From Armatimonadota bacterium (lineage in GTDB: Bacteria; Bacillota; Desulfotomaculia; Desulfotomaculales; Nap2-2B): a stretch of 64,000 nt of DNA. Where the stretch lies: positions 643 to 64,642 of the forward strand of contig JAIMBK010000009.1 of NCBI GenBank assembly GCA_023511535.1. The letters run 5' to 3'. The notes beneath the pieces are model-generated. The model had not been told where the DNA came from and did no database searches. It saw only the letters and a list, made by a program, of their open reading frames with translations. Of the stretch, positions 1 to 60,433 are shown in pieces. Numbering within the stretch: the first letter of the stretch is position 1; every line of letters starts with the position of its first letter. The translations under genes and the position numbers were made by a program.

Positions 1-1058
1 CCTATGCAGTCGACGGGGACGTCTATTTTGACATCAGCTCCTTTCCCGCCTACGGCAAACTTTCCCGGCGGTCTCCGGACGAAATGCTGGCCGGGGCGCG
101 GGTGGAGGTGAACCCCCGGAAAAAGAACCCCCTGGACTTCGCCCTCTGGAAGGCGGCCAGGCCTGGCGAACCTTCCTGGCCCAGTCCCTGGGGGCCGGGG
201 CGGCCGGGCTGGCACATCGAGTGTTCGGCCATGTCCTTAAAATACCTGGGGGCTAATTTTGACATCCACGGCGGAGGCATGGACCTCATTTTCCCCCACC
301 ACGAAAATGAAATCGCCCAGTCCGAAGCGGCCACCGGGCAGCCTTTCGTGCGCTACTGGATGCATAACGGTTTCATCACCGTCAACCAGGAAAAAATGTC
401 CAAGTCCCTGGGGAACTTCTTCCTGGTGCGGGACGTCCTGAAAAAATTTTCGCCGCTGGTGGTGCGCTTCTTTTTGTTATCGACGCACTACCGCAGCCCG
501 CTGGATTTCGACGACGAAAAAGTGGAGTCCGCCGGCCGGGGCCGGGAACGCCTCAAAAACAGCCTGCAACTGGTCGGCGAGGCCCTTCGCGGGCAGCAAC
601 GGACAGAAATGACCGACCGGGACCGGGACTGCCTGGCCAGGCTGGAGACCCTCCGCCGGCAATTTGAAGGAGCCATGGACGACGATTTCAACACCGCCCT
701 GGCCTTAAGCTACTGCTTTGAGCTGGCCAGGGAAGCAAACAGCTACCTGCAGGAAGAAACTGCTCCCGCCAGGGACGTGCTGGCCAAAATTTCCGGACTG
801 TTTGCGGACTTCAACGAAGTGCTGGGGCTGTTCAAAACCGGTGCGCAAGGGGAAATCGTGCTCGCGGAGCGGCCCGGAGCGGATGCGGAAGCGGGGGAAC
901 TGGTGCAGTCCTTAATCGAACTGCTTCTCCAGGTCAGGCAGGAGGCCCGGGCCAAAAAAGACTGGACTACCGCCGACCGGATCAGGGACGGCTTAAAAGG
1001 GCTGGGGATCGTCATAGAAGACACCCCCCAGGGCCCCCGCTGGAAAAGCAGGGGTTAG
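1..1058 (+). CDS. cysS: cysteine--tRNA ligase, C-terminal part (5' end outside window)
   Basis: Frame is open from the window edge to TAG 1056-1058. Class I aaRS signatures [28 protein letters not shown] and KMSKSLGN. Confidence 0.95.
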
Positions 1059-1147
1059 GGATTAGGAGTTAGGGTAGATACTCTTGTATATATCTTTATG
1101 AAGAGGAAGTAAGTCATTGTGAACAGTTCCCGGATATTGTCGAAATT

Positions 1148-1555
1148 ATGAAGATAACCGCTTCACCTACAAGCAACGACCTGAAACCGGAAGAATTGCC
1201 GGTCCTGGTCCTGGCGTACCTGGGGGACGCCGTTTACGAGCTGCTCGTCCGCCAGCGCCTGGTTAGCATCGGGCTGGTCAGGATGGACCAGTTGCACAAA
1301 GAAACGGTCAAATACGTCCGGGCGGATTTTCAGGCCGCGATAATGCGCCGGCTGGCAGCCGGCGGCCTCACCGAAGCCGAAGCGGCTGTCGCGCGGCGCG
1401 GAAGAAACGCCAAAATTACCCACCCGCCCAAAGGGGCCAGCCCGGAAAATTATCATTACAGCACGGCGTTCGAAGCGTTGATCGGGTTTTTATATCTCAA
1501 GGAAGAATACGAGCGCCTGAACGAGCTGATGGAAATGATTTTTGAAGGCGCGTAG
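1148..1555 (+). CDS. mrnC: mini-ribonuclease 3
   Basis: 135 aa. RNase III-like LAYLGDAVYELLVR motif. Conserved position after cysS in Firmicutes. Confidence 0.85.
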   Translation: MKITASPTSNDLKPEELPVLVLAYLGDAVYELLVRQRLVSIGLVRMDQLHKETVKYVRADFQAAIMRRLAAGGLTEAEAAVARRGRNAKITHPPKGASPENYHYSTAFEALIGFLYLKEEYERLNELMEMIFEGA

Positions 1556-2335
1556 GTGAGGATTTTCTTGAAACCAGCCAACGTGGTTGCAGGCCGGAAC
1601 CCCGTGCGGGAAACCTTGCGCGGGGGCCGCCCCGTCAACAAGCTGCTGCTGGCCCGGGGGGCCACCGGCGGCGCGATTCAAGAGATCTGCCGGCTGGCCC
1701 GGGAAAAGGGCATTCCCATCCAGCAGGTGGAACGGGTTTACCTGGATAAGCTGGCTCCCGGGACGGTGCACCAGGGCGTGGCCGCCCTGGCGGCGGAAAA
1801 AGAATACGTCACGGTGGACGACCTCCTGGCCTGGTGCAGGGAAAAAGAAGAGGATCCTTTTTTTCTTCTTTTGAACGGCATCACCGATCCGCATAACCTG
1901 GGCGCCATTATGCGTACCGCGGAAGCTGCCGGCGCCCACGGCATCGTCATCCCCGCCCGCCGCTCCGCTTCCCTTACGCCGGCGGTCCTGAAGGCGGCGG
2001 CGGGGGCCGCGGAATACCTGCCGGTGGCGCGGGTGACCAATCTGGCCCGGACGATCCGGTATCTTCAGCAAAAAAACCTCTGGGTGGTGGGGGCGGAAAG
2101 TTCCGCCGGGGATCTATTCTGGGAAGCGCGGTTGGATGGGCCGCTGGCCCTGGTCGTCGGCAGCGAAGGGAAGGGGCTGGGCCCGCAGATCCGGAAAATT
2201 TGCGATGCCCTGGTCCGCCTGCCCATGGCGGGGCGGATCACCTCCTTAAACGCTTCTGCAGCGGCCGCCGTCCTGGCCTACGAAGTTTTCCGGCAAAGGA
2301 GAAGGGCCGCCCATGAAAGAGTACCTGATCGTTGA
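1556..2335 (+). CDS. rlmB: 23S rRNA 2'-O-ribose methyltransferase, SpoU/TrmH family (RlmB-like)
   Basis: SpoU motifs ITDPHNLGAIMRTAEAAG, LVVGSEGKGL, SLNASAAAAVLAYE. The GTG start at 1556 is uncertain. Confidence 0.85.
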   Translation: MRIFLKPANVVAGRNPVRETLRGGRPVNKLLLARGATGGAIQEICRLAREKGIPIQQVERVYLDKLAPGTVHQGVAALAAEKEYVTVDDLLAWCREKEEDPFFLLLNGITDPHNLGAIMRTAEAAGAHGIVIPARRSASLTPAVLKAAAGAAEYLPVARVTNLARTIRYLQQKNLWVVGAESSAGDLFWEARLDGPLALVVGSEGKGLGPQIRKICDALVRLPMAGRITSLNASAAAAVLAYEVFRQRRRAAHERVPDR

Positions 2336-2825
2336 CGGCTACAACATCATCTTTGCCTGGCCGCATTTCGAGGAGCTGCGCAAATCCGGCCTGGAACACG
2401 CCAGGCTGAAACTCATCGACATCCTGGTTAACTACGCAGCCCTCACCGGCCGGCAGGTCATCCTGGTTTTCGACGCCTACCGGGTGAGAGAATCCGCGGC
2501 CCGCACGGAAGAAATGCCGGGTTTGCAGGTGATTTACACCGCCTTCGGGGAGACGGCCGACTCCCTCATCGAAAAGCTGGTTGGGGAGTTGTCCAGGGAA
2601 GGCGCCGTTTACGTGGCCACTTCCGACTGGGCGGAGCAGCGCATGGTTTTGGGACAGGGAGCCTGCCGCCTGACCCCGCAGGAACTGCTGGACAGCATCC
2701 GGCAGGAAGCCAAAGCAGGGAAGCGTTTTTGCAGTCCGGAACGGCCCGCCGACGCCTACCTGGAGAACCGTTTAAAAGGAAAAATCCGCGTTTTTTTAGA
2801 GAACTGGCGGCGAAAAAAAACATGA
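2313..2825 (+). CDS. yacP: NYN/PIN-like ribonuclease, YacP (Rae1) family
   Basis: N-terminus MKEYLIVDGYNIIF is typical of the YacP family. Synteny cysS-mrnC-rlmB-yacP-sigH. Confidence 0.75.
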   Translation: MKEYLIVDGYNIIFAWPHFEELRKSGLEHARLKLIDILVNYAALTGRQVILVFDAYRVRESAARTEEMPGLQVIYTAFGETADSLIEKLVGELSREGAVYVATSDWAEQRMVLGQGACRLTPQELLDSIRQEAKAGKRFCSPERPADAYLENRLKGKIRVFLENWRRKKT

Positions 2826-2827
2826 TC

Positions 2828-3789: not shown

Positions 3790-5313
3790 ATGTTTTTGGA
3801 TACCCCTTCGCAAAAAGAATATCTGGCGTTAAGCAAACATTTCAACCTGATTCCGGTAAGCTACGAGTGTTTTGCCGATACGCAGACGCCGATCACCGTT
3901 TACTGGAAGGTTTCCGGGGGGCGCCCGGGCTGCCTGCTGGAGAGCGTCGAGGGGGGCGAAAGGGTGGCCCGCTACTCCTTTCTCGGTATCGATCCTTTCC
4001 TTGCCTACAGTCACCGGGGAAAGACGGGCCGGGTGTGGAAGCAGGAAGGCGGCGCCGTTCAGAAGGTGGCCGGAAATCCCTTTGAAATTTTGGAAAACCT
4101 GATCTCCTCCTTCCGGGTGCCCGAATTGGAACTGCCCAGGTTTTTCGGCGGCGCCGCCGGGTATTTCGGGTACGATTTAGTGCACTGGCTGGAAAAGCTG
4201 CCTTCCGGAAACAAAAATGATTTGCCTTTCGACGACTGCTCCTTCCTGTTTTGCGGTACGGTGCTGATTTTCGACCACGTCCGGCACACGCTGCGCATTG
4301 TGGTAAACAGCTTTCCGGGAGATTCCCCGCAGCGGGCTTATACCCGGGCCGTCCGGAAAATCGAAGAGGTTTTGCGCGTTTTAAACGGCCCGGAACGGGA
4401 AAGTATTCCGTTATTAAACGGCGGCGCAAACTGCCGGGGGAGCCCGGACCCGCATTTTTCGCCGGCCGGATCCAATTTCACCCGGGAGAGTTTTCTAGAC
4501 GCGGTAAAAAGGGCCAAGGAATACATCCGGCAGGGAGAAATTTTGCAGGTTGTGCTTTCCCAGCGCTTTTGCCGGCCTTTTGCCGGGGATCCCTTTTTGG
4601 CTTACCGCCGCCTGCGCGCTGTGAACCCGTCTCCTTATTTATATTTCTTGAACTTCGGGGAGCTGGCGGTGGCGGGCTCTTCCCCGGAAATGCTGGTGCG
4701 GGTGGAGGGGGAAGACGTGGAAACCAGGCCGATTGCCGGCACCCGCCCGCGGGGCGGGACAAAGGATGAAGATGAGCGGCTGGCCCGGGAATTGCAGGCC
4801 GACCCCAAGGAAAGGGCCGAGCACGTCATGCTGGTTGACCTGGGACGGAATGATCTGGGGCGGGTCTGCGCGGCCGGAAGCGTTGAAGTTCCGCAGTTTT
4901 TAACGGTAGAAAAGTATTCCCACGTCATGCACCTGGTGTCTTCCGTCAAGGGCCGCCTGGCGCCCGGCCGGACGGCTTTTGATGCCTTGAAAGCCTGTTT
5001 TCCGGCAGGAACCGTCTCCGGCGCGCCAAAGGTGCGGGCCATGGAAATTATTGCCGAACTCGAACCGGCCGCGCGCGGCCCTTATGCGGGGGCCATCGGC
5101 TATATCGGCTTTAACGGCAACCTGGATACGGCCATTACGATCCGGACCGTGCTTTTTTCCCGGGGTAGCGCGTATGTCCAGGCCGGCGCGGGGATCGTCG
5201 CCGATTCCGACCCGGCCGGAGAATACGCGGAGACGGTGAAGAAAGCGCAGGCTTTGCTGGAAACCCTGGAAAGAATGCAAGGGGGTGGTTCAGTTGCTGG
5301 CCATGATCGATAA
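3790..5313 (+). CDS. trpE: anthranilate synthase component I
   Basis: Chorismate-binding family motifs [54 protein letters not shown]. The start may be TTG 3796, which has better spacing to GGAGG. Confidence 0.95.
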
Positions 5314-10667: not shown

Positions 10668-11684
10668 ATGGTGGTTGTAATGGATCATCACGCTGACGAA
10701 AAGCAGATTAACGCCGTGATCCGGCGGCTGGAAAAGGCCGGCTTCCAGATTCATCTTTCCCGGGGGGTAGAAAGGACCATCATCGGCGCCATCGGGGACC
10801 GGACGCGGGCCGGCGACCTTGGTTTGGAAGCCATGGACGGGGTGGAAAAAGTTGTCCCGATCCTTCAACCTTTTAAACTGGCCAGCCGAATATTTAAGCA
10901 GGAAGATTCTGTCGTCAAGGTAGGAAATTTGGCGATTGGCGGCGAAATAATCCACATCATGGCCGGACCCTGCGCGGTGGAAAGCCGCGAGCAGCTGCTG
11001 GAGGTGGCGCACCAGGTAAAAGAAGCGGGGGCGACCATTTTACGCGGGGGGGCATATAAACCGCGCACTTCTCCCTACTCCTTCCAGGGGTTGGAAAAAG
11101 AAGGCCTCGAGCTCCTCGCCGAGGCCCGCGCGGCTACCGGTCTGTACATTGTAACCGAGGTCATGGACACCCGGGCCGTTCCTTTGGTGGCCGAGTATGC
11201 CGACATTTTGCAGATCGGCACGCGCAACATGCAGAATTTCAACCTGCTCAAAGAAGTCGCCGCGGTGAACAAGCCGGTTCTTTTGAAGCGGGGGCTTTCC
11301 GCCACCATCGAGGAGTGGTTGATGGCCGCCGAGTACATCATGGCGGGGGGAAACCACCAGGTAATCCTGTGCGAAAGGGGCATCCGGAGTTTTGAAACCT
11401 ATACGCGCAACACCCTGGACCTCTGCGCCGTTCCGGTGGTGAAACACTTAAGCCACCTGCCGGTGGTGGTCGATCCCAGCCACGCCATCGGGAAATGGCG
11501 CTACGTTCCGGCGATGGCCCGGGCCGCCCTGGCCGCCGGAGCGGACGGGCTGCTCGTAGAAGTTCACCCCAACCCGCAGGAAGCTTTGTGCGACGGTCCC
11601 CAGTCGCTGACCCCGGACAACTTTGCCGCCATGATGGCGGACCTGCGCAAAATGGCCGCCCACCTGGGCAGAAAACTGGAGTGA
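10668..11684 (+). CDS. aroF: 3-deoxy-7-phosphoheptulonate (DAHP) synthase, type I-beta with N-terminal ferredoxin-like/ACT-like regulatory domain
   Basis: N-terminal roughly 70 aa regulatory domain ([40 protein letters not shown]) as in the Thermotoga-type enzyme. Catalytic motifs [28 protein letters not shown]. Confidence 0.9.
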
Positions 11685-11815
11685 AGTGCGGTCGAATTGC
11701 ATTTTGCAGCGCTGCCTGGTTCGTCCCGAAAGCAGCGGAACGACGGCGAATCAGCGGCAGGCTAAGCAGCGGCGGACAGGCGAACGCCAGGCGAGAAAGG
11801 GGGGTTAAAGAGACC

Positions 11816-12229
11816 GTGAACCAGGAAGGACAACTGGTCATCTTCCAGCTGAACGATCAGCAGTACGCCTTGCCCATTCACCAGATCCAGGAAATCGTCA
11901 AAATGACCGCCATCACCCGCGTACCAAACACCAGGCCTTACGTGGAAGGAATTATCAATCTCAGGGGAAACATCATCCCGGTGATCAACATGAACAGGCG
12001 CCTGAATTTGCCGGTCAGCGGGTACGACGACGCCACCCGCATCATCGTGGTGGAATTGAAGGGTCAAAAAGTAGGCATCATCGTTGATAACGTAACGGAA
12101 GTGGGGCGCTTCACGGAAAACGAGGTGGAGCCGCCGTCCGTGGTGGGTGACGACGTGGATTATCTAAACGGTGTAGTGAAAAAGGAAAATAATTTGTGGC
12201 TGCTCTTAAACCTGGAAAAAGTTCTGTGA
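11816..12229 (+). CDS. cheW: chemotaxis coupling protein CheW (single-domain)
   Basis: LVIFQLNDQQYALPIHQIQEI, INLRGNIIPVINM, GIIVDNVTEV. GTG 11816 follows AAAGGGGGG. The upstream part of the 11495 ORF overlaps aroF and looks non-coding. Confidence 0.85.
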   Translation: MNQEGQLVIFQLNDQQYALPIHQIQEIVKMTAITRVPNTRPYVEGIINLRGNIIPVINMNRRLNLPVSGYDDATRIIVVELKGQKVGIIVDNVTEVGRFTENEVEPPSVVGDDVDYLNGVVKKENNLWLLLNLEKVL

Positions 12230-12283
12230 ATTAATTAGTTAGTACCTTCGTTATATCCGGCTTAAAATAATGATTTCAACTAT

Positions 12284-12415
12284 CCTGAAAGATCAGGCAC
12301 AAAGTTCCCAGGCACAGAGGCACAAAGTAAAATATTCAATTTCCTGGTCACCTCGTTGTTTCTTTGCGCCTCTGGGCCTTTGGGCCTCTGTACCTTGCTG
12401 CTTTTATCCTGAAAA
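12284..12415 (+). repeat. MITE-like inverted-repeat element, copy A1 (GGCACAAAG family)
   Basis: Begins CCTGAAA and ends CCTGAAAA. The left arm (GATCAGGCACAAAGTTCCCAGGCACAGAGGCACAAAG) is imperfectly complementary to the right arm (CTTTGCGCCTCTGGGCCTTTGGGCCTCTG). About 88% identical to the reverse complement of 30166-30281. Confidence 0.7.
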
Positions 12416-12550
12416 TAACCTTCGCTAATTTTCATCCTCTGCTGGTGCTGTGTTTGCAGCATGGGTGTCTATTTCCGAAAATTGCTTTCTTCCCGGGGCC
12501 TGTTTGAAAATTCAGCGGGCCGGCGGGGTTTTTGTTTTGTTCAGCTTTTC

Positions 12551-12579
12551 TTGTTCTGAACCGGACTGTGGAGTATAAT
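12551..12579 (+). promoter_or_regulatory. sigma-A type promoter upstream of miaB
   Basis: TTGTTC (12551-12556), 17-nt spacer, TATAAT (12574-12579). Confidence 0.55.
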
Positions 12580-12646
12580 AAAAGGGACGGCGAGAAAAAG
12601 GCAAAGGCGAAGGCAAAAAGCGTGCCGCCGGCCGCGAAGAGGTGAC

Positions 12647-14059
12647 ATGGTGAAGGATCACCGGGAGCAGGTGCAGGAACACGAACGGGTACAAAGGCAA
12701 GAACAGGAAAAGGAACAGGAACGGGAACGGGAACGGCAGCCGGGACAGAAATATCTCGTTTTGACCTACGGCTGCCAGATGAACGAACACGATTCCGAAG
12801 TAATGGCCGGGATTCTGGAAGAAATGGGCTACCGGCCGGCAAAGCGCAGGGAAGAGGCGGACGTTATCCTGGTCAATACCTGCTGCGTGCGGGAGACGGC
12901 CGAAAACAAAATTTACGGATTGCTCGGGGAGTTCCGCCGGCTGAAAATGAACCGGCCCGGCCTGCTGATCGGCGTAGGCGGCTGCCTGACCCAGCAGGAA
13001 GCGGCGGCCAAAAAAATCCGGGACCGCTTCCCTTACGTCGACCTGATTTTCGGCACGCATAATCTTCCCCGCCTGAGAGAATTGATCGAACAGGCAAAAG
13101 AGAGCCGCCGGACGGTGGTGGAACTGCTGGACCGCTCCGAACCGGCGCCGGAGGGCCTGCCCATCCGGCGGGCCAGCGGCGTTAAAGCCTGGGTAGTGAT
13201 CACCTTCGGCTGCAACAATTTTTGCACCTACTGCATAGTTCCGTACGTCCGCGGCCGGGAGTGCAGCCGGCCACCGGAGAACATCCTGGCCGAGATCAGG
13301 GACCTGGCGGCGCAGGGGTATAAAGAAGTGACGCTGCTCGGTCAAAACGTTAATTCTTACGGCCGGGATCTCCCGGGGAACGTGGATTTTGCCGGACTTT
13401 TAACGGAAGTCAACCAGATTAAAGGGATCGAACGCATCCGGTATACCACTTCCCACCCCCGGGACTTTTCCCCCCGCCTGATCGAAGCGATTGCCCGGGG
13501 CGAAAAGATTTGCGAGCACGTCCACCTGCCCGTGCAGGCGGGAAGCAACCGCGTTTTGCGCATGATGAACAGGGGTTACACCCGCGAAGACTACCTGGCG
13601 CTGGTGGAAAAAATCCGGGAGGCCATTCCGGGAGCAGCGCTTACCACCGACATCATGGTCGGCTTTCCCGGCGAAACGGACGAAGATTTTGCGCAAACCC
13701 TCGATCTGGTGGAAAGGGTCCGCTTTGACAGCGCCTTTATGTTTATTTACAACATCCGCCCGGGTACGCCGGCCGCGCGCCTGCCCAACCAGGTGAAAGA
13801 CGAAGTAAAAAGAGCCAGGATTAAAACGCTGATCGAAAAGCAAAATCAAATCACCAAAGAGATCAATATAAATGAAGAAGGGAAAATTTACCGCCTCCTG
13901 GTGGACGGCGAAAGCAAGACCAACCCCCGGATGTTAAGCGGGCGAACCCGCACGAACAAGCTGGTCATTTTCCCCGGCCCGCCGGAATTGGTGGGAAAGT
14001 TCGTTGATGTAAGGATCACCAGGGGGAAGCTGACTCATTTAGAAGGGATTAGTGAATAG
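12647..14059 (+). CDS. miaB: tRNA-2-methylthio-N6-dimethylallyladenosine synthase
   Basis: UPF0004 N-domain [12 protein letters not shown], radical SAM cluster [14 protein letters not shown]-terminal TRAM domain. The N-terminal roughly 33 aa are low-complexity ([12 protein letters not shown]). Confidence 0.9.
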
Positions 14060-14077
14060 GGAGTAGTGAATAGGGAT
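14050..14077 (+). repeat. tandem 14-nt duplication (two heptamer pairs) spanning the miaB stop codon
   Basis: TAGTGAATAGGGAG (14050-14063) then TAGTGAATAGGGAT (14064-14077). The miaB TAG is at 14057-14059. Confidence 0.8.
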
Positions 14078-14205
14078 TATCTGTTTTTCAATGAAATTTC
14101 TAGAAATATTTTATTTCCGGCAGGATTTCCGGAGTTATTGGAGAATTCCATTTTTCAAAAGATTATTACGAGTTGGCTGATTGGCAACCGGGCAAACTTT
14201 TTGGG

Positions 14206-18632: not shown

Positions 18633-19589
18633 GTGAAAACACCTGCCCGAGGTGACCTGGATGTGGTAAAAATTAGAATGTGGCCGGATAACGGCACAAA
18701 ACTTTCCCCAAAACCGTCCCCAAAACTGTCTGAGAAAAATAAAACCGAGCCGAAAAAAGACAGTTTGGCCGGCCTGAATGTCCAGGAAATCTTAAGCGAA
18801 TTAAACTCGTTGATCGGGCTGCGGGAAATTAAAAAGCTGATTGGCGAAATCTACGCCCTGGTGGAGATTCAAAAAAGGCGCCAAAAAGAAAAGCTGCCGG
18901 TGGAGCCCCAGGTGCTGCACATGATTTTCAAAGGAAACCCCGGCACGGGAAAGACGACGGTGGCCAGGATTATCGGCCGCCTTTTTAAAGAAGTGGGCGT
19001 GCTGCCGAAGGGGCACCTGGTCGAGGTGGAAAGGGCCGATCTGGTCGGCGAGTATATCGGACATACGGCGCAAAAAACGCGCGAGCAATTAAAAAAGGCC
19101 CTGGGCGGCGTTTTGTTTATTGACGAAGCCTATTCGCTGGCCCGCGGCGGAGAAAAGGATTTCGGCAAAGAAGCGATCGACGTCCTGGTGAAAGGTATGG
19201 AAGACAATAAGGACAACCTCATTTTGATTCTGGCCGGCTACCGGGACGAGATGGACTGGTTCATCGAAAGCAACCCCGGCCTGCGCTCCCGCTTTCCCAT
19301 TCATTTGAGTTTTCCCGATTATACCATTGACGAATTGCTGGCGATTGCCGATTTAATGCTGTTCAGGAGGCATTACGTTTTCTCCCCGGGAGCCAGGGAA
19401 GAACTGCGCCTGCTCCTGGAAAAGGAGGCGGTTACCCACCGCCACAACGGCAACGCCCGGCTGGTCCGCAACTTTATCGAAAAGTCCATCCGGCAGCAGG
19501 CGGTCCGGCTGGTCCAAAAGAAAGAGGTTACCCGGGAAGAACTGATGACTATTACGCGGGAGGATATTTTGCAGGCAAAATTAAATTAG
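18633..19589 (+). CDS. spoVK: stage V sporulation protein K-type AAA+ ATPase
   Basis: Walker A GNPGTGKTT, Walker B VLFIDEAYSL, CbbX/SpoVK-type GYRDEMDWF and NPGLRSRF. Start is uncertain. Confidence 0.8.
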   Translation: MKTPARGDLDVVKIRMWPDNGTKLSPKPSPKLSEKNKTEPKKDSLAGLNVQEILSELNSLIGLREIKKLIGEIYALVEIQKRRQKEKLPVEPQVLHMIFKGNPGTGKTTVARIIGRLFKEVGVLPKGHLVEVERADLVGEYIGHTAQKTREQLKKALGGVLFIDEAYSLARGGEKDFGKEAIDVLVKGMEDNKDNLILILAGYRDEMDWFIESNPGLRSRFPIHLSFPDYTIDELLAIADLMLFRRHYVFSPGAREELRLLLEKEAVTHRHNGNARLVRNFIEKSIRQQAVRLVQKKEVTREELMTITREDILQAKLN

Positions 19590-19668
19590 GAATTGGGGGG
19601 TGGGAATTAGGAATTGGGGTTTGTATTGTACCCCCAATTCCTGGTTCCTGATTCCCAATTCCCAATTA
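19588..19668. repeat. long imperfect hairpin built from GGGAATT / AATTCCC heptamer units
   Basis: G-rich arm GGAATTGGGGGGTGGGAATTAGGAATTGGGG, loop TTTGTATTGTA, C-rich arm CCCCCAATTCCTGGTTCCTGATTCCCAATTCCCAATT. The inner stem AGGAATTGGGG/CCCCAATTCCT is perfect. Confidence 0.8.
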
Positions 19669-20944: not shown

Positions 20945-21844
20945 ATGAACTTAAGGCAGCTCGAAGTATTTTTGTGGGTGGCCGAACTGAAAAGCTTTAC
21001 CGGGGCGGCTAAGCACCTGTTTATGAGCCAGCCGGCGGTCAGCTTCCAGATCCGTGCCCTGGAGGAAGAACTGGGGGTTAAACTGTTCTGGCGCAACGAA
21101 AAGAACGTCACCCTTACCGAAGCCGGGCGCCTGTTGTATCCGGAGGTCCGGCAGATGGTCGGCCACTTCTATAAACTCAAGTCCGGGCTGGAAGATTTAA
21201 AAGGCCTGCGCACGGGCCGCCTGGAGATCGGAGCCAGCACCATCCCCGGCGAATACGTGCTGCCGCTTCTGATCGGAGATTTCCGCCGGATCTACCCGGG
21301 CATTCAGATCAGCCTGCGGATCGGCGGCAGCGGGGAAGTGGAAAAGTGGCTCCTCGACCGGGAAATCGATCTGGGCTTTACCGGCGTTTTCGTCGCCGGC
21401 AAAGATGTTCAGTGTCTGCCCTGGATCGACGACCGCCTCGTCCTGATCGTCCCCCCCGACCACCCCTGGGGACTGAAGAAGAGCGTGGAACTTTCCGAAC
21501 TGATCAAAGAACCACTTATTTTACGCGAGCCGGGTTCCGGCACCCGGCGGACCTTTGAAGCCAAACTGGCGGGCAAAGAGATTACCCTGGCGCAATGCAA
21601 CGTTGCCATGGAACTGGGCAGCACGCGGGCAATCATCACAGCGGTCCAGGCCGGCCTGGGGGTGGGGGTGGTTTCCTTTTGGGCCGCGCAGGAGCCGTTG
21701 CTTCTGGAACGGGTGCGGGAAGCGGTTTTAAAAGACCTTGACCTGCAAAGAAAATTATACGTTGCCCGCAGCAAGAACCGGATTAACAACTACGCCGCTG
21801 ACGCCTTTTTCGAATTTATTTTTCAGCAAGCGGAGGTTTTTTGA
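20945..21844 (+). CDS. LysR-family transcriptional regulator
   Basis: N-terminal wHTH MNLRQLEVFLWVAELKSFTGAAKHLFMSQPAVSFQIRALEEELG plus a substrate-binding domain. Confidence 0.88.
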   Translation: MNLRQLEVFLWVAELKSFTGAAKHLFMSQPAVSFQIRALEEELGVKLFWRNEKNVTLTEAGRLLYPEVRQMVGHFYKLKSGLEDLKGLRTGRLEIGASTIPGEYVLPLLIGDFRRIYPGIQISLRIGGSGEVEKWLLDREIDLGFTGVFVAGKDVQCLPWIDDRLVLIVPPDHPWGLKKSVELSELIKEPLILREPGSGTRRTFEAKLAGKEITLAQCNVAMELGSTRAIITAVQAGLGVGVVSFWAAQEPLLLERVREAVLKDLDLQRKLYVARSKNRINNYAADAFFEFIFQQAEVF

Positions 21845-24207: not shown

Positions 24208-24295
24208 TATTTTCAGAATAATTAATCTAAAATCTTCCAAAAAAAGCGAAAATAATCGTCTTCAGGACAAAGTATCTTCCTTAATTTAATTCCTG

Positions 24296-36111: not shown

Positions 36112-36133
36112 CGCAAGGGGGGAGAGAAGAGGT

Positions 36134-37186: not shown

Positions 37187-37190
37187 AAAC

Positions 37191-37682: not shown

Positions 37683-37700
37683 GGCAAAGGAGGGTGAACG

Positions 37701-38270: not shown

Positions 38271-38280
38271 CCCGGTGACC

Positions 38281-38595: not shown

Positions 38596-38872
38596 AATAA
38601 TTATTCAGGGACATAGGCATTGAGGCACAAAGGTATAAAGATCAGAGCAGAAAAGTACAGACACTCCAGGGTTGGATTTGCAAAGCAGGGTTGGCAAGTT
38701 CAACCTGGAATTAACAAGTTAGGTTTTCGGTACGGATAGTTAAATCAGGAGTCAGGGAGATCAGGAGATTGCGATGCGAATATCTTTCCGACTGTAAAAG
38801 ATTTCCGGCTAAGGCCCTCCGACCTCCGACTTCTGACATCCGACTTCTGATCATGGAGGTGTTATAAGCTAA
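38596..38872 (+). repeat. 277-nt repeat-mosaic spacer inside the nuo operon (nuoK-nuoL)
   Basis: Contains TTCAGGGACATAGGCATTGAGGCACAAAGGTATAAAGATCAG (related to the left end of copy A2), GGGTTGGA units, and heptamers GACCTCC GACTTCT GACATCC GACTTCT (38821-38848). Confidence 0.8.
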
Positions 38873-43806: not shown

Positions 43807-43902
43807 GATACCACTTCCAAAATTCTTCAGAAGTAATTTCAAGGTGTTTTAATATTTTGGCCAGCTTTTGCGGAGTAACCCGCCGGCTGGGATGATGATG
43901 AA

Positions 43903-44007
43903 CTCAGAAAATACCAGGCACATAGTTTCCCAGGCGCAAGGGCACAAAGTAAATATTCCCGGTCGTCTTTACATATCTTTTTGTGCCTTAGTGCCTCTAT
44001 TTTCATG
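43903..44007 (+). repeat. MITE-like element, diverged copy A3
   Basis: CTCAGAAAATACCAGGCACATAGTTTCCCAGGCGCAAGGGCACAAAGTAAATATTCC ... CTTTTTGTGCCTTAGTGCCTCT aligns with A1 at roughly 80-85% by eye. Confidence 0.65.
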
Positions 44008-45423: not shown

Positions 45424-45465
45424 TAAAGATCAGGCACAAAGTTTCGCAGGCACAAAGTTATTCCC
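45424..45465 (+). repeat. MITE-like element, partial copy A4
   Basis: TAAAGATCAGGCACAAAGTTTCGCAGGCACAAAGTTATTCC. A 19-nt run, AAAGATCAGGCACAAAGTT, is identical to 12288-12306. Confidence 0.7.
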
Positions 45466-45677
45466 GGGATAATTCCCTTTGTCAATTAGATGTGAGCCTC
45501 TCAAACTTTAGGAGACGCTTTGTGTTCCCCGTTTCTTCCCGTTTCCTCCGGGAGTGTCACAATATTCGCTCCGTGGCCCGATTGGCTCACACCCCCTGTG
45601 CCTTACTACCGCAGTGTTTTTTGGTTTTAATCACCTGTTGGTGCCGTGAATAAGTGGCATCAGGGTTTTTTCCAACC

Positions 45678-46919
45678 CTACTTTTCCTTTATTTGAAACA
45701 GGTGAAACACGGTGGTACGGTCCCAGCCGATATCCCAGGGGCAGTGGTAGCGATCAGCGGTGTGGGCGTTGACCAGCGGGTAGCCCCTGGAATCGAAGCC
45801 GGTGACCACGGCGAAATGCTGGATGTCGTGCTTTTCTTCGTAAGCGATGAGGTCCCCCGCTTGCAATTCCCGGACGGCGCTCCGCGGAAATTTCGGGCCG
45901 GGCAAACCCACCTCCGGAAAGGTTCCTTTGGCCAGGCGAACGGCACGCCCCCCGGACAAAAGCCAGAAGGCAAAGGAGTCGGTCTGAACCCAGGCGGTAC
46001 TTCCGCAACCCCCGCGCCCGTCGTAGCGATAATACCAGACGGAATCCATCGGCAACTTCCCCCCCTCCCGGTCGCCCAGCACCTGGGAAACGAAATTCGT
46101 ACAATCGCCGCCGCGGCCGTTTAAGTCCCGGTAGCGGGGATTGTATTTTCTCTCTCCGTCAATGACGGCCAGACCGGCAAATCGATCCGCGTACCGGACG
46201 GCCCCGGCGCGGTCGTAAACCAGGTTTGGGGAGGCGCTGGTATTGGAAGGGGTGCCGTTGTTGGGATCGTTGCTCAAAACAATGTTTAAATCGGCGCTGC
46301 CGTCGGCCGGAAAGGGCTTCGGAACGAGCGTGTCGTCACCCAGGGGATCCGTGTACCAGTCCCGTTGAACAAGCCAGAGACCGTTTTTCTTCACCAGCCG
46401 GACGGAGTGGCGCGTGCCGATGCCGAAGCGGTTTACCCGGTCTTTCTCATCGGGGTACTGGTAGCCGAGGACAAGGGTTTGCCAGACATTAAATTCGGCT
46501 GATTCTTTTTGCAGTTTCGACCATTTCACGTCCAGGTTCACTTTTGCTTCTCCAATCCGGACGCCGCGTTTTTTTGCCCAGTTTTGCATGTAGGCGATTT
46601 TGGTTTGTTCGTGGGAAAGCGCCCACCGGCCGAGCCTGGCTTCCTGGTCGTAAAGGGGGACGATCTTTTCCGGATCGGCTCCCGTGAGAAGAGCATTTGC
46701 CCTGGTTACATAGATCTCCTGCAGCCTGGGCAGGAGACTTTCCAGGGAAGGGGCTTCTTTTTCCTTGCTCCCGGCGGCCGGTTTTCGTTCGGAGGTTTCG
46801 GCAATGAAAAAAGGGGCGGCGGAAGGAGGGACCGCCGGCAGGGGAAAAAATAAAAAGTTGCCCAGCGCAAAAATCACGGAGAGAACGACGAGAAAAAAAG
46901 ATAACCCGGACATTTTCAC
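45678..46919 (-). CDS. membrane-anchored putative amidase-domain protein (Amidase_6-like)
   Basis: N-terminal TM helix. The C-terminal region with GGDCTNFVSQVL ... GDLIAYE ... HFAVVTG ... HTADRY resembles the papain-like putative amidase domain. Confidence 0.6.
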   Translation of the reverse strand: MKMSGLSFFLVVLSVIFALGNFLFFPLPAVPPSAAPFFIAETSERKPAAGSKEKEAPSLESLLPRLQEIYVTRANALLTGADPEKIVPLYDQEARLGRWALSHEQTKIAYMQNWAKKRGVRIGEAKVNLDVKWSKLQKESAEFNVWQTLVLGYQYPDEKDRVNRFGIGTRHSVRLVKKNGLWLVQRDWYTDPLGDDTLVPKPFPADGSADLNIVLSNDPNNGTPSNTSASPNLVYDRAGAVRYADRFAGLAVIDGERKYNPRYRDLNGRGGDCTNFVSQVLGDREGGKLPMDSVWYYRYDGRGGCGSTAWVQTDSFAFWLLSGGRAVRLAKGTFPEVGLPGPKFPRSAVRELQAGDLIAYEEKHDIQHFAVVTGFDSRGYPLVNAHTADRYHCPWDIGWDRTTVFHLFQIKEK

Positions 46920-47544: not shown

Positions 47545-47597
47545 AAAAGAAGGGACGAAGAGACAAAGAAAAAAGAACAAACCAAGGCGGTGAAAAA

Positions 47598-50252: not shown

Positions 50253-52160
50253 ATGAAATCATTGATGAAGAAGTTTAAATATACCGGCGAAGAACCCGGC
50301 TCCCGGTATCAGGGCGAGAAGCAGTTGGAGCGCCAGGTCAATGCTCTTTACGGCCTGGTCGCCAATTTATACGGCACCGATAAGCTGGTGCTAAGGGCGG
50401 GAAAGGTCAACGCGTTACAGCTGATGCGCTCGGAACACCTGGGGGAGCGCGTGCTGGCTTTGCAAAGGCTGGTTTTTGAAGATCCCACCATCGAGCAAAT
50501 TCCTGCGGCGAGGGAAATCCCGTCAATTTTAGGGTTGATTGAAGAAGAAATTGCCGAAATTCTAGCCCGGCGAACGGTGGAAGAGGAACTGGAAAGAAAG
50601 ATCAACGAGAAATTGCAGCAAAGGCATAAGGATTACGTACAGGAAATAAAAAACCAGGTACTGAAGGAAAACAGCGGCCCGGAAAACGCCCAAACGTTAA
50701 AAAAGCTGGCTATTTTTGAAAAGATGGAGCAAAAAAAGCTGGCCTGTTCGGCCATGGCCGTTTTGCGCCCGGCCAGTTTTGCGGAAATCGTGGGCCAGGA
50801 GAGAGCGGTAAAGGCCCTTTTGGCGAAAATGGCCTCTCCGTTCCCCCAGCACATCATCCTTTACGGCCCGCCGGGAGTAGGAAAAACAACCGCCGCCCGG
50901 CTGGCCCTGGAGGCGGCAAAAAAAATGGCCGCTTCCTCCTTCCGCGAGGACGCCCCCTTTGTGGAAGTGAGCGGGGCGACTCTGCGCTGGGACCCCCGGG
51001 AAGTTACCAATCCCCTGCTGGGCTCCGTTCACGATCCGATCTACCAGGGGGCCCGTCGCGATCTGGCCGAAAGCGGCGTACCCGAGCCGAAACCGGGCCT
51101 GGTTACCGAAGCCCACGGCGGGGTTCTGTTTATTGACGAAATCGGCGAAATGGACCCCCTCCTGCAGAACAAACTTTTAAAAGTCCTCGAAGATAAACGG
51201 GTATTTTTTGAGTCGTCGTACTACGACCCGCACGATCCCAATGTCCCCCAGTACGTCAAGAAATTATTTGAAGAAGGGGCACCGGCGGATTTCATTTTAA
51301 TCGGCGCCACCACCCGCGACTGCGAAGACATTAATCCCGCCCTGCGCTCCCGGTGCGCGGAAATCTTTTTCGAACCGCTGACCCCGCGGGACATCCGGCA
51401 GATCGTCGCCCAGGCGGCCCAAAAGCTCGGCGTCGCTCTGGAGGAAAAGGTTCCCCAGGTCATCAGCCAGTACACAATCGAAGGCCGCAAGGCCGTGAAC
51501 ATCCTGGCCGATGCCTACAGCCTGGCCTGGTACCGTCAGCAGGGGGAGCAAGCGATCCGGATTACAGTCGATGATGTCTACGAAGTGATCCAGTTGAGCC
51601 GCCTGGTCCTTTGCAATATCCGGAAAGTGTCGGCCGCCCGGGAAGTGGGCCGGATCTTCGGTCTGGGCGTGGCCGGCTACCTGGGTTCTCTAATTGAAAT
51701 TGAGGCCGTTGCCTTTCCCGCCCGGGAAGCGCGGCGGGGGAATCTGCGCTTTAACGACTCTGCCGGGTCGATGGCAAAGGATTCGGTCTTCAATGCTGCT
51801 TCCGTAATCCGGAAAATTTCCGGAAAGGACCTGGCGGATTACGACATCCACGTCAACGTGGTGGGCGGCGGGCGAATCGACGGACCTTCGGCCGGCCTGG
51901 CAATTTTCCTGGCCATCTTAAGCGCTCTGGAGGAGCGTCCGGTTCCCCAGGACCTCGCCGTGACCGGGGAATTGTCCATCCAGGGCCGGGTCCGGCCGGT
52001 GGGCGGCATTCCGGAAAAGATTTACGGGGCGCGCCAGGCGGGGATTAAGAAAGTGCTTGTTCCGGCCGAAAATTTACCCGAGGTGCCTTCTGATTTGACC
52101 GATCTGGAGGTCGTTCCGGTGGCCGCCGTGGAAGAAGTGCTGGCCCATGTTTTAAATTAG
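50253..52160 (+). CDS. Lon-family ATP-dependent protease (LonB/LonC-like, no N-terminal LAN domain)
   Basis: Walker A GPPGVGKTT, Walker B VLFIDEIGEM. C-terminal Lon proteolytic domain with DGPSAGLAIFLA (Ser) and GIKKVLVP (Lys). Confidence 0.82.
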   Translation: MKSLMKKFKYTGEEPGSRYQGEKQLERQVNALYGLVANLYGTDKLVLRAGKVNALQLMRSEHLGERVLALQRLVFEDPTIEQIPAAREIPSILGLIEEEIAEILARRTVEEELERKINEKLQQRHKDYVQEIKNQVLKENSGPENAQTLKKLAIFEKMEQKKLACSAMAVLRPASFAEIVGQERAVKALLAKMASPFPQHIILYGPPGVGKTTAARLALEAAKKMAASSFREDAPFVEVSGATLRWDPREVTNPLLGSVHDPIYQGARRDLAESGVPEPKPGLVTEAHGGVLFIDEIGEMDPLLQNKLLKVLEDKRVFFESSYYDPHDPNVPQYVKKLFEEGAPADFILIGATTRDCEDINPALRSRCAEIFFEPLTPRDIRQIVAQAAQKLGVALEEKVPQVISQYTIEGRKAVNILADAYSLAWYRQQGEQAIRITVDDVYEVIQLSRLVLCNIRKVSAAREVGRIFGLGVAGYLGSLIEIEAVAFPAREARRGNLRFNDSAGSMAKDSVFNAASVIRKISGKDLADYDIHVNVVGGGRIDGPSAGLAIFLAILSALEERPVPQDLAVTGELSIQGRVRPVGGIPEKIYGARQAGIKKVLVPAENLPEVPSDLTDLEVVPVAAVEEVLAHVLN

Positions 52161-52180
52161 GGGTTAGGGGTCAGACCTCC
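52157..52180 (+). repeat. heptamers TTAGGGG TTAGGGG TCAGACC TCC overlapping the protease stop codon
   Basis: TAG 52158-52160 is part of the first unit. Two repeat families (TTAGGGG and GACCTCC) are juxtaposed. Confidence 0.75.
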
Positions 52181-52305
52181 GCAGCGCTTTTTCGCGGCAC
52201 CAGCAGAGGATGTTTTTGTATATTGCAGAGGGTTTCTCATTGGGCCGACGTCCTTGAGCACGGTCCGGCCCGGCCCGACTTGCGAAAAATGATCGGGTGA
52301 AAAGT

Positions 52306-58995: not shown

Positions 58996-59139
58996 TATAT
59001 GATCATGATAATCAGGATGTGCTTTTATTTGGTGTCGTTTCCTGGTATAATTTCGTCAGTCGAAGACGAACGAAATAATTCCCTTTTTCCTCCTTTGCTG
59101 CAACAGAATCATTCAGGCGGTGAAACAGGGGGTGGCGGA

Positions 59140-60054
59140 ATGATGTTTTCCTGGGATGCCCTTTTGATTCCTTTCACGGACTGGCTGGTGACCACAGGGC
59201 TGCGCATTTTCCTCGTGCTCGCCGGGACGTTTATTTTTGTCCGTTTAATCGTTACCGCCCTGAAAAGGTTTGAGCGGGTACTGATCGACAAGGCGGGGGG
59301 TTCCGGAGAGCAGGAAAAGCGGATCCGGACCCTGATCGGTCTGCTCCGCAAGATTGCCTGGATCGGTTCAGTTGTGGTGGCCATCGTGATTATTCTGGGC
59401 ATCCTGGACATTGATATCAGGCCGATCATTACCGCGGCGGGCATCGGCGGGCTGGCCCTGGGCTTCGGTGCCCAAAGCCTGGTGCGGGACGTGATCAGCG
59501 GCTTCTTTATGCTCCTGGAGGACCAGATCCGGGTCGGCGACGTGGTGGTCTTAAACGGAACGGCGGGAGAAGTGGTGGAAATGAACCTGCGCACCACCGT
59601 CCTGCGGGATTTAAGCGGCACCGTACACATTTTCCCCAACGGGAACATAACCTCGGTTTCCAATATGACCAAGGACTGGTCGCGCTACGTCATTGACGTG
59701 GGGGTCGCCTACAAAGAAGATGTCGATTACGTCATGGAGGTACTCAAAGAAATCGGCACGGAACTGTCCGCCGATCCTGAATTCGGCCGGTATATTTTAA
59801 AGCCGCTGGAAGTTTTGGGGGTTGACAATTTCGGCCCCTCGGAGATAGTAATTAAAGTGATGATTACCACCGTACCCCTCAAGCAATGGTACGTGGGCCG
59901 GGAACTGCGGCGCCGGATCAAAAAAAGGTTTGACGAGTTGGGCATCGAAATCCCTTTCCCGCACACGACCGTCTACTGGGGGGAAGCCAGCCGGCCTTTC
60001 TCCATGCGGGTGAGGTACGAGGACGGGCGTCCCCCGGAGAAGCAGGAAAAATAA
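59140..60054 (+). CDS. mscS: small-conductance mechanosensitive channel (MscS family)
   Basis: Three TM helices, then GFGAQSLVRDVISGFFMLLEDQIRVGDVV and a beta domain. ATG 59140 follows GGGGGTGG. Confidence 0.85.
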   Translation: MMFSWDALLIPFTDWLVTTGLRIFLVLAGTFIFVRLIVTALKRFERVLIDKAGGSGEQEKRIRTLIGLLRKIAWIGSVVVAIVIILGILDIDIRPIITAAGIGGLALGFGAQSLVRDVISGFFMLLEDQIRVGDVVVLNGTAGEVVEMNLRTTVLRDLSGTVHIFPNGNITSVSNMTKDWSRYVIDVGVAYKEDVDYVMEVLKEIGTELSADPEFGRYILKPLEVLGVDNFGPSEIVIKVMITTVPLKQWYVGRELRRRIKKRFDELGIEIPFPHTTVYWGEASRPFSMRVRYEDGRPPEKQEK

Positions 60055-60063
60055 AAAAAGAAA

Positions 60064-60402
60064 ATGGGAGATACGATCACTTTTTTACAGGAACTGAAAG
60101 ATTTGATCGCCGGTTTTGTCCGGGAACGGGATTGGGAGCAGTTCCACACCCCGAAAAACCTGGCCATGTCCATTGCCATCGAAGCCGCAGAGCTGATGGA
60201 AATTTTCCAATGGGGACCGGAAGCAGCGGAAATGGTTCCGGATGACCTGGCGAAAGTCCGGGAGGAACTGGCCGACGTGGTGATTTATTGCCTGGCCATG
60301 GCCAACCGGCTGGGTATCGACTTATCTTCGGCGGTCAAGGAAAAGGTGGCGAAAAACAGCCGCAAATATCCAAAAGAAAAATATTCCGGCCGGTATAAGT
60401 AA
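60064..60402 (+). CDS. MazG-like nucleotide pyrophosphohydrolase (all-alpha NTP-PPase, DCTPP1-like)
   Basis: RDWEQFHTPKNLAMSIAIEAAELMEIFQW ... EELADVVIYCLAMAN. Confidence 0.8.
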   Translation: MGDTITFLQELKDLIAGFVRERDWEQFHTPKNLAMSIAIEAAELMEIFQWGPEAAEMVPDDLAKVREELADVVIYCLAMANRLGIDLSSAVKEKVAKNSRKYPKEKYSGRYK

Positions 60403-60433
60403 GTCGTCGGACGTCAGACGTCAGTCGTCGGAC
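60403..60433. repeat. heptamers GTCGTCG GACGTCA GACGTCA GTCGTCG GAC directly after the stop codon
   Basis: Starts 1 nt after TAA 60400-60402. The reverse complement belongs to the GACNTCY family seen at 38821-38848. Confidence 0.75.

Follow-up and report, generated by a model that had tools for sequence, protein, structure and literature searches.

Cyanobacteria have been known to contain heptamer tandem repeats since 1990, and Xanthomonas since 2015; neither their preference for a period of seven nor their role has been explained. The question is raised again by a 64,000-nucleotide stretch of contig JAIMBK010000009.1 (assembly GCA_023511535.1, positions 643 to 64,642; hereafter the window), in which short-period arrays fill spacers between genes and often begin at stop codons: what are these arrays, and why do they lie at gene ends? 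The window holds three interlocking kinds of repeat, namely heptamer arrays, a palindromic element of ∼130 nt and a module of ∼50 nt (the TTAGAC module). We rate as a little better than even the reading that they are clade-specific selfish or neutral repeats, with a turnover driven by slippage and filtered by translation signals. Apparently for the first time, heptameric intergenic repeats are described in Bacillota, coupled to a dispersed module and hairpin and supplying stop codons.

The window has a GC content of 56–57% and its genes are almost all on the plus strand. By Pfam they include cysS, miaB, a spoVK-like AAA protein, methionine gamma-lyase, dctP, lepB, rbgA, rnhB, nuo genes, a Lon-like protease, dnaB and a MazG-like gene. 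The closest named homologues of the window proteins belong to Desulfotomaculales (Desulfofundulus: Lon 74%, RbgA 49%), and the host is treated here as an uncultured Desulfotomaculales-like member of Bacillota. The source metagenome-assembled genome (MAG) is labelled ‘Armatimonadetes bacterium’ at NCBI, at variance with its Desulfotomaculales-like gene content and closest named homologues; an error of binning or taxonomy probably lies behind the label. Relatives (loci numbered with the prefix L) were retrieved via RbgA and Lon homologues. Those bearing arrays were L001, L005, L006 and L007 (∼96% nucleotide identity), L002 (91%) and L008 (∼85%), together with the more distant L132 (Lon protein identity 85%), L130 (RbgA 69%) and L131 (RbgA 63%). 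Outgroups with the same gene order were L009 (RbgA 60%), L134 (Lon 78%) and L135, which is Desulfofundulus salinus (61 kb in total).

Enrichment, position and polarity of the arrays

Arrays of period 7 were detected by Tandem Repeats Finder (TRF) at 1050, 19633, 24298, 32045, 32572, 34939, 38816, 52157 and 60405, and arrays of period 8 at 12362, 30235 and 31501. At a TRF score of at least 30 there were 10 period-7 arrays, compared with a mean of 1.78 (maximum 7) in 100 block-wise dinucleotide shuffles, a 5–6-fold excess. A stricter self-match detector returned six segments of period 7 and 0–1 each for periods 4, 5, 8, 10 and 11; five of the six period-7 segments fell in the non-coding 9.3% of the window (binomial P = 3.8e-5). 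Arrays were also present at orthologous places in nine loci (L001, L002, L005, L006, L007, L008, L130, L131 and L132), which derive from different projects and assemblers (NCBI MAGs, Logan, ENA). Because these nine loci come from independently assembled relatives, the arrays are real and not an artefact of one assembly. The window-wide array families put forward in the original prediction are thus real and non-random: they are mostly non-coding, they exceed shuffles and favour stop codons within the window, and they recur in independent assemblies. Reading of the sequence also confirmed the repeat units quoted for them at their coordinates. Most of the listed loci are intergenic, as had been claimed, except that 32042–32093 lies within the rbgA coding sequence, and a supposed 7–8-mer near 12590 has a period of 6 (12597–12625).

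The first array overlaps the stop codon or begins no more than 3 nt after it in 11 of the 14 array-bearing spacers (Poisson-binomial P = 2.4e-13). Such a start had been predicted at nine genes and was found at eight, the nuoK array beginning 11 nt past the stop; stop-abutting arrays were found additionally at an ABC ATPase gene, nuoC and rpsF. The arrays also differ in strand. On the coding strand, 11 stop-adjacent arrays were purine-rich and none was pyrimidine-rich (the mazG array is neutral), whereas five of six start-adjacent arrays were pyrimidine-rich and one was purine-rich (Fisher p = 0.001 for the contrast of stop and start). On reading the sequence, the pre-start arrays finish 4–10 nt ahead of the ribosome-binding site (RBS). 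Elements beside two minus-strand genes are in minus orientation, so the polarity follows transcription rather than replication. At cysS, miaB, lon, mazG and the ABC ATPase gene the arrays are flush with the stop though 70–400 nt of other spacer follow. This remainder is as conserved as coding DNA in comparison with L006, which suggests that it is functionally occupied.

Stop codons are in several cases provided by the repeats themselves. The TAG of the TTAGAC module is the true stop of lepB in L008, of lon in L132 and of a minus-strand amidase gene in the window. RbgA ends in VNTGDRG in the window, in VNTGIKD in L001 and in PP or similar residues in the outgroups, the tails being encoded by the arrays; the HDAC protein ends in GPKNE in the window and in GPKE in L006, where an insert provides the TAG. 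Since module TAGs serve as stops and C-termini vary with the arrays, elements evidently insert into the final codons, which are unconstrained, or extend into them, and give the gene a new stop. Heptamer units containing TAG had been expected to place stops in all three frames; this held for TTAGGGR-type arrays of at least three units and failed for the octamer and GTCRGAC arrays. Cast at first as a barrier after the stop, the three-frame stops survive in changed form, as a property that makes 3′-end insertion tolerable rather than as a service to the cell. The C-rich pre-start arrays contain no start codons and have no affinity for the anti-Shine-Dalgarno (anti-SD) sequence, while their complements would bring 1–4 start codons and SD-like runs. 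Because the C-rich arrays are free of both, a filter against decoy initiation sites near real ones fits the data.

Composite architecture and turnover of the repeats

As the original prediction had supposed, the G-rich and C-rich families are one family on opposite strands, TTAGGGA, TTAGGGG, TTAGGAA and GGGGATA being reverse complements of TCCCTAA, CCCCAAT, TTCCTGA and CCCTCAT. Further heptamer families are RACCTCC (32042 and 38816, with a complement near 30291) and GTCRGAC (60403). The octamer class is of another kind. An nhmmer profile revealed a conserved dispersed element of ∼130 nt with arms of GGCACAAAG octamers, laid out as (RGGCACAAAG)n, a loop, ATATTTTTAC and then TTTGTGCCT..TGTGCCTGGGA.ACTTTGTGCCTGATCTTTYCAGG. 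Copies were found by nhmmer at 12280–12409 (minus), 30166–30292 (plus) and 43896–44003 (minus) in the window, at 3601–3730 in L002 and at 5163–5290 in L008; degenerate copies or solo arms lie at 31499–31612, 33384–33465, 38607–38660, 45430–45510 and 47546–47585. Folding gives a long hairpin (z −2.6 and −4.3), and the consensus structure of the element has 18 conserved predicted pairs. The GNNCAAAG 7–8-mers, at first taken for a simple repeat, are arms or remnants of this one element. In a metagenome scan, the hairpin core gave 120 matches, mostly by chance, with about 10 judged genuine by nhmmer.

The TTAGAC module (consensus TTAGACCTCCATGCCG-TTTTT-CGGCACCAACAGAGGATGAAAAT) was found in the window at 30104–30160, 30306–30359, 52168–52226 and 12475–12419 (minus), and also in L001, L005, L006, L008, L024, L103, L124, L130 and L132. 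It lies immediately 5′ of the hairpin twice in the window and in L008, L124 and L024, forming a joint composite of ∼190 nt, and nhmmer placed copies of both module and hairpin at unrelated loci. Ahead of the module stand 0–8 TTAGGGR units: at the lon site none in L132 and two in the window, and at other sites 1–8, with three in L001 and 6–8 in L005 and L006. Because the number of units at the 5′ end of the module varies, even at the same lon site, the TTAGGGR arrays behave as a variable 5′ tail of the module. The ‘TCAGACC TCC’ at 52171, seen earlier as a second array set against the first, is the start of a module copy. A single system of simple tandem repeats, as first envisaged, does not describe the window, in that the octamers belong to a palindromic element, TTAGGGR is a module tail and one array is coding. 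A small protein encoded by the composite (ORFs 30143–30457 and 12462–12280, from the module ATG) was considered and rejected, as the frame differs between copies on reading the sequences.

Related repeats were seen in more distant contigs. In L114, which carries a gene for a DsrK-like protein from Nitrospirota, a purine-rich octamer array of 208 nt, (GAGGCATA/GAGGGGCA)n at 3965–4172, runs from a stop codon to the next gene and fills the spacer. The same contig has heptamer arrays and, at 11280–11355, a CTTTGTGCC arm that shares the TATTTTTACTTTGTGCCT core. As this contig is assigned to Nitrospirota, similar stop-abutting octamer repeats occur outside Bacillota. A GGCACAAAG hairpin was also seen at 2413–2529 of L107, a contig of 40% GC.

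The repeats are restricted to one clade. The syntenic outgroup DNA of L009, L134 and L135 (61 kb) contained no segment of period 7 or period 8. The lepB–rbgA spacer is 13 nt in L009 and 132 nt in the window; the corresponding lengths for nuoK–nuoL are ∼40 nt and 277 nt, and the rpsF–ssb spacer, of 48 nt in outgroup DNA, measures 52 nt in the window but 208 nt in L132. Because the outgroup spacers are short and array-free, the repeats are inserted material gained in one lineage.

Copy number differs between strains by whole units (+14, 21 and 42 nt). The array after the HDAC gene differs between L005 and L006 by exactly two heptamers (+14 nt), and the array inside rbgA differs among relatives by 21 or 42 nt with the frame always kept, versions of it persisting to 63% RbgA identity. 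In pairwise alignments, arrays showed 11–18% mismatch and most of the gaps, compared with 2–5.5% mismatch in coding DNA and, against L006, 3.7–5.1% in other intergenic DNA. The arrays diverge 3–4 times as fast as flanking DNA, and nothing else in the region evolves as quickly. Entire blocks are gained and lost as well. L005 and L006 carry a composite of ∼270 nt placed precisely at the stop of the HDAC gene; the window has a spacer of 12 nt there. A hairpin element of ∼125 nt in L002 is missing from the window and from L001; its deletion in the window is suggested by the short tail that remains there.

Explanations for the repeats and their known counterparts

To account for arrays that are real, enriched, biased in position and strand, restricted to one clade, changing by whole units, supplying stops and built into composites, we infer a slippage engine, a mode of spread, a set of selective filters and a lack of function. 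The elements would have entered one lineage of uncultured Desulfotomaculales-like Bacillota and spread, by some copy mechanism, into what is the only dispensable DNA of a compact genome, between a stop codon (plus the last codons) and the regulatory or RBS sequence of the next gene. Their short-period parts would then lengthen, shorten and homogenise by replication slippage or unequal recombination. Three causes may underlie the link to stop codons. Ancestral operon spacers were presumably tiny (13–67 nt), so that any insert would abut a stop. Inserts may also invade the last codons, with the TAG or TAA of the element becoming the new stop; as 7 is not divisible by 3, three units of a TTAGGGR tail suffice to close all frames, and such insertions would be cheap. 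Lastly, the rest of the longer spacers is conserved and presumably functional. The strand rule is best read as a further filter, in which SD-like, start-codon-bearing G-rich runs are not tolerated beside a true RBS, and within rbgA only multiples of 21 nt survive. We saw no evidence that the cell uses the arrays.

Several points weigh against this account. The preference for period 7 is left without explanation, and a stop-codon filter does not explain the orientation of post-stop arrays, as TTAGGGA and TCCCTAA both contain stops. Arrays stay at the same sites among relatives with RbgA only 63–77% identical, a persistence that could reflect selection for their presence and not mere turnover, and the anti-SD affinity of the TTAGGGR arrays (below) makes a translational role possible. 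Neither a transposase nor a target-site duplication, nor any other mark left by copying, was found in the window or at polymorphic junctions. The clade DNA sampled amounts to only ∼130 kb.

By analogy, the arrays are best filed as a Bacillota counterpart of the cyanobacterial short tandemly repeated repetitive (STRR) sequences and of the G-rich heptamers of Xanthomonas and Nostoc. STRR1, with the unit CCCCA(A/G)T, and other such families were reportedly described by Mazel and colleagues in 1990, in heterocystous cyanobacteria (cited in PMC4692102). The likeness to them that the original prediction had drawn proved apt, in that 34939–34986 holds four exact CCCCAAT units (the STRR1 unit). As in STRR sequences, tandem heptamers here occupy intergenic or intercistronic DNA, with several unit families per genome. 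The phylum is different, the arrays are short (2–7 units) and the units are mostly TTAGGGR, RACCTCC and GTCRGAC. Exact CCCCAAT occurs only at 34939–34986, no TRF consensus matches STRR2 TT(G/T)GTCA or STRR3 CAACAGT, and the other units in this comparison were TTAGGGR, CCCTCAT, RACCTCC and GTCRGAC. Nor is the host a heterocystous cyanobacterium, judging by its Desulfotomaculales homologues and spoVK-like AAA protein.

The closest parallel in position was reported for Xanthomonas GGGAATC and Nostoc/Anabaena GGGGA(C/T)T heptamers, which are mostly intergenic and lie among housekeeping genes (Rehm et al. 2015, PMC4692102). In those genomes the G-rich strand is the coding strand 0–50 bp past stops, including overlap with the stop, and C-rich repeats lie just upstream of starts; some form inverted pairs, and location is conserved in relatives while length and sequence vary (PMC4692102). 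The window shares the position and strand rule, the stop overlap, the inverted pairs and the conserved sites with variable length and sequence. It differs in its Desulfotomaculales-like Bacillota host, in having several unrelated unit families and in the tie to the TTAGAC module, and few of its arrays have the four G-tracts required of a G-quadruplex (G4). That one and the same polarity at stops and starts recurs in Bacillota, Gammaproteobacteria and Cyanobacteria favours a general rule, tied to translation or transcription, over a quirk of one lineage.

Among long simple sequence repeats (LSSR; units of 5–11 nt), heptanucleotides likewise form the largest class in several bacterial genomes, and slippage tied to the polymerase footprint has been proposed as their cause, according to the account of Mrazek 2007 given in PMC4679880. 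As far as that account goes, the window falls in this class (10 arrays against 1.78; period 7 stands out among periods 4–12; none in outgroups), and its whole-unit insertions and deletions fit the slippage proposal. Firmicutes are not among the LSSR-rich genomes highlighted there, and here the repeats are linked to dispersed modules and stop codons. TAACTGA direct repeats in marine Beggiatoaceae, cyanobacteria and Bacteroidetes (2–6 copies, intergenic) have a single unit sequence and lie mainly just upstream of starts, and a role in translation was proposed for them but not shown (MacGregor 2015, PMC4679880). They resemble the present arrays as short intergenic heptamer arrays that adjoin translation signals and have a sporadic phylogenetic distribution; they differ from them in that the arrays here lie mostly at stop codons and comprise several unit families. 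The statement that such repeats are undescribed in Firmicutes agrees with our literature search, which found no report, although this is absence of evidence only.

Among the alternatives, it is unlikely, though a serious candidate, that the repeats are non-autonomous elements of the kind of REPINs or of miniature inverted-repeat transposable elements (MITEs), mobilised by a transposase encoded elsewhere and preferring the 3′ ends of genes, with tails and solo arms as by-products or decay. Such elements would explain the dispersal of module and hairpin at unrelated loci in both orientations, the recurrence of the order module-then-hairpin in the window, L008, L124 and L024, the presence or absence of whole blocks between genomes ∼96% identical, and the start of eight of nine modules at the stop codon of a gene. 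They would also fit the GGCACAAAG hairpins of contigs that differ in GC content, among them L114 from Nitrospirota. The hairpin is an inverted doublet like REPINs, in which singlets are regarded as decayed doublets (Bertels and Rainey 2011, PMC3116915). For the octamer-armed element alone the likeness extends further, as it is a dispersed extragenic inverted doublet of ∼130 nt with a long hairpin and remnant-like solo arms; its arms, however, are octamer tandem repeats and its copies follow transcription. Intergenic hairpin repeats and MITEs also include BOX, Correia and ERIC, and the hairpin element recalls the modular composite build of pneumococcal BOX elements. Against mobility of this kind, no REP-associated tyrosine transposase (RAYT), IS200-like or other transposase was found among the 20 window ORFs scanned against Pfam. 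Target-site duplications, expected of a MITE, were absent from the three polymorphic junctions (HDAC–miaA, the 19623 loop and the hairpin near 33526). Strain differences of 7, 14 or 21 nt are a slippage signature, and the RACCTCC and GTCRGAC arrays have no associated module. A transposase beside the 43896–44003 element was looked for as well and rejected, its neighbours encoding an acyl-CoA dehydrogenase and an amidase.

Slightly lower still do we place the chance that the repeats are functional RNA-level elements of operon spacers. Purine-rich SD-like sites after stops might block read-through and retain terminating ribosomes or pass them on; before starts, pyrimidine-rich arrays resembling the anti-SD sequence might keep the 5′ region free of decoys or pair with the RBS, and paired arrays might form stabilising or processing hairpins. 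The strict rule of position and strand, the maintenance of arrays at the same spacers over long divergence and the report of the same rule for three unrelated genomes (PMC4692102) all suit such roles, as does a CCUCC array that adjoins the GGAGG RBS of nuoL. TTAGGGR arrays bind the anti-SD sequence with mean energies of −5.3 to −6.6 kcal/mol, compared with a random median of −1.9, placing them in the top 5% of random windows, while C-rich arrays do not bind at all. The best energies of the arrays (−6 to −8) are nevertheless weaker than those of true RBSs (median −10.3), and the affinity is a modest lead rather than evidence. Folding was better than in shuffles for 3 of 18 array regions, the strong hairpins of the paired loci (z −2.6 to −5.2), and most arrays have no structure beyond chance.

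Other observations also speak against a function in RNA. The sequence and copy number of the units are the least conserved DNA of the region, several unrelated unit families occupy the same relative position, the octamer and GTCRGAC arrays lack three-frame stops, and close outgroups run the same operons with array-free spacers of 13–67 nt. Rfam gave no match at gathering score across the window and none at E ≤ 5 in 30000–39000. In 29500–39500 no terminator-like site coincided with any array, the count of intrinsic terminators equalling the shuffle expectation; the hairpins at arrays have no U-tracts, and a promoter consensus scan showed no association with arrays. For the TTAGAC module RNAalifold predicted no hairpin, and a hand-drawn 6-bp helix paired and covaried no more than in shuffles. 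The roles first suggested for the arrays, as post-stop barriers, 3′-end structures or binding platforms, thus found no direct support, given the weak folding, the lack of a terminator or Rfam link and the fast evolution. The 277-nt array-filled nuo spacer suggests that arrays are compatible with read-through transcription. Phase variation by contingency-locus simple sequence repeats, which act from the promoter or 5′ coding region of surface or virulence genes, was likewise rejected, as the arrays follow the stops of housekeeping genes (cysS, miaB, lepB, rbgA, rnhB, nuo, rpsF and lon among them) and the coding array shifts only in 21-nt steps.

A more unified, and more doubtful, proposal is that module, TTAGGGR tail and octamer hairpin are one undescribed non-autonomous mobile element of anaerobes, homing to gene 3′ ends with a three-frame stop cassette of its own. 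If so, landing in the last codons of essential genes would be almost free of cost, heptamer arrays would arise at the 5′ end of the element during or after insertion, and the related GGCACAAAG hairpins in the Nitrospirota contig would point to horizontal spread. We regard it as very improbable that the arrays matter through G4 or i-motif structures formed near the ends of genes, in DNA or in RNA, a role suggested earlier for the heptamers of Xanthomonas and Nostoc. GGG or GGGG tracts do occur in the G-rich units at 1050, 19585, 32572 and 52157, and GGGGATT repeats form G4 in vitro (Rehm et al. 2015, PMC4692102). The window has no excess of canonical G4 motifs, however (7 against 12.2 in shuffles), and the sole array that qualifies is at 34954–34977, on the minus strand; copy numbers range over 2–7 with no preference for four, and the RACCTCC, GTCRGAC and GGCACAAAG families are unable to form G4. 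That the arrays are assembly or binning artefacts or chance low-complexity sequence is next to inconceivable: the source is a metagenome-assembled contig and an N run lies inside one L005 repeat cluster, but nine loci from different projects and assemblers have arrays at orthologous sites and the shuffle tests exclude chance.

On the preferred account, of selfish or neutral repeats kept in turnover by slippage, the sister genomes with repeats and those without (L009, L134, Desulfofundulus) form an unusually clean natural experiment. As both sets share operons, it is possible to date when the repeats were gained and to correlate this gain with gene content (polymerases, mismatch repair, transposases). 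A module TAG that serves as a host stop and the long-kept in-frame array in the essential GTPase RbgA offer experimental handles. A specialist would recognise the phenomenon; the paired sister genomes make the questions of why heptamers and why gene ends more tractable.

Individual loci and neighbouring observations

The loci are given here in order, on the plus strand unless stated. At 1050–1076 a TTAGGGR array runs over the cysS stop (TAG 1056–1058) and is followed by degenerate module-like sequence (TAGAT...). The composite at 12280–12475 is in minus orientation, with a TTAGAC module (12475–12419) and then the octamer-armed hairpin (12409–12280; fold z −2.6). The period-6 run at 12597–12625, a purine-rich (AAAGGC)n, lies 21 nt upstream of the miaB start and is the sole exception to the strand rule. 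Heptamers of the GGGAKTA/GTGAATA type with a higher-order period of 14 nt cover the miaB stop (14057–14059) at 14044–14079, with other units in L006. The 93 nt that follow (14080–14172) are nearly identical between the window and L006, though the array itself is altered, and are probably a conserved regulatory or leader region of the downstream hydantoinase/oxoprolinase-like gene. At 19585–19668 a G-rich array that includes the spoVK-like stop (19585–19622) and a complementary C-rich array (19631–19668) pair into a hairpin of ∼35 bp (z −5.15), with a loop 94 nt longer in L006. A CCCTCAT/CCCTAAT array at 24296–24320 lies 27 nt upstream of the dctP start, directly 5′ of the RBS.

The repeat cluster upstream of rplS (30098–30359; fold z −4.3) is entirely missing in L005 and L006. 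It begins with a short TAGGGAT tail at the ABC ATPase stop and continues with module A (30104–30160), the octamer-armed hairpin (30166–30292), G-rich heptamers (∼30271–30310) and module B (30306–30359). In the lepB–rbgA spacer (31499–31612), a purine-rich GNNCAAAG arm (31499–31553) starts 0 nt after the lepB stop and is followed by a degenerate complementary arm (31586–31612). The RACCTCC array at 32042–32093 in the rbgA coding sequence encodes (TSNLRPP)-like repeats right before the G1 P-loop, and a GGGGATA array at 32572–32611 encodes the final residues and stop codon of rbgA; L001 has GGGATTA units and a TTAGAC module at this site, and L002 has nothing. A purine-rich octamer array (33384–33465), a solo arm, begins 0 nt past the rnhB stop and shows differences of 29 nt and 10 nt in relatives.

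The nuoC–nuoD spacer (34895–34986) holds degenerate purine-rich heptamers (34895–34932) and then a TCCCTAA/CCCCAAT array (34939–34986) that stops 24 nt ahead of the nuoD start. Between nuoK and nuoL (38607–38850) lie a purine-rich octamer arm (38607–38660), ATCAGGAG repeats (38744–38769) and a GACCTCC/GACTTCT array (38816–38850), which stops 22 nt ahead of the nuoL start. Two elements are in minus orientation: the octamer-armed hairpin at 43896–44003, downstream of the minus-strand acyl-CoA dehydrogenase gene, and a degenerate composite at 45430–45680, in which module-like sequence starts from the TAG stop of the minus-strand amidase gene and is followed by a CTTTGTGCC hairpin remnant. The purine-rich remnant GGGACGAAGAGACAAAG (47546–47585) occupies the rpsF–ssb spacer, where L132 has a full octamer hairpin of 208 nt and the outgroups have none. 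At 52157–52226, two TTAGGGG units that include the stop of the Lon-like protease are followed by module C (52168–52226), and a GTCGTCG/GACGTCA array (60403–60433) starts 0 nt past the stop of the MazG-like gene.

An N run with duplicated sequence on both sides lies at 3681–3780 of L005, within the composite repeat after the HDAC gene, and suggests that the repeats break or confuse short-read assembly. In practical terms, short-read assemblies break at such arrays, and the stop codons and C-termini annotated in MAGs are displaced by them.

Upstream of the octamer arm at its stop, rnhB itself shows an unusual feature (33162–33186). The coding sequence of RNase HII changes frame at GGGGGGGATGGT CTT TAG C. 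This TAG ends the N-terminal ORF, and the remainder continues in the +1 frame to a TAA at 33381–33383. CUU UAG C resembles the programmed +1 frameshift site of prfB, CUU UGA C, and a G-rich SD-like run precedes the rnhB site. The split site, GGGGGGGAUGGUCUUUAGC, is identical in five genomes (window, L001, L002, L005 and L008), down to ∼85% nucleotide identity, while the outgroup L009 has in-frame CGG AGC and an intact protein of 228 aa. From its sequence, the split is a candidate programmed +1 frameshift. The rbgA and rnhB genes are adjacent in the window; in L005 they are separated by ISL3 transposase fragments and two extra genes (11650–14100).

A segment of ∼8.5 kb (21833–30356) is missing from L002, L005 and L006, in which a LysR-type regulator gene adjoins the rplS upstream region. 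The segment carries genes for a sensor kinase, a response regulator, DctP and further transporter proteins, together with branched-chain-type ABC transporter genes. Its window-side junction (30098–30359) is dense in repeat elements, and the outgroup L009 retains the part with the kinase, the regulator and DctPQM.

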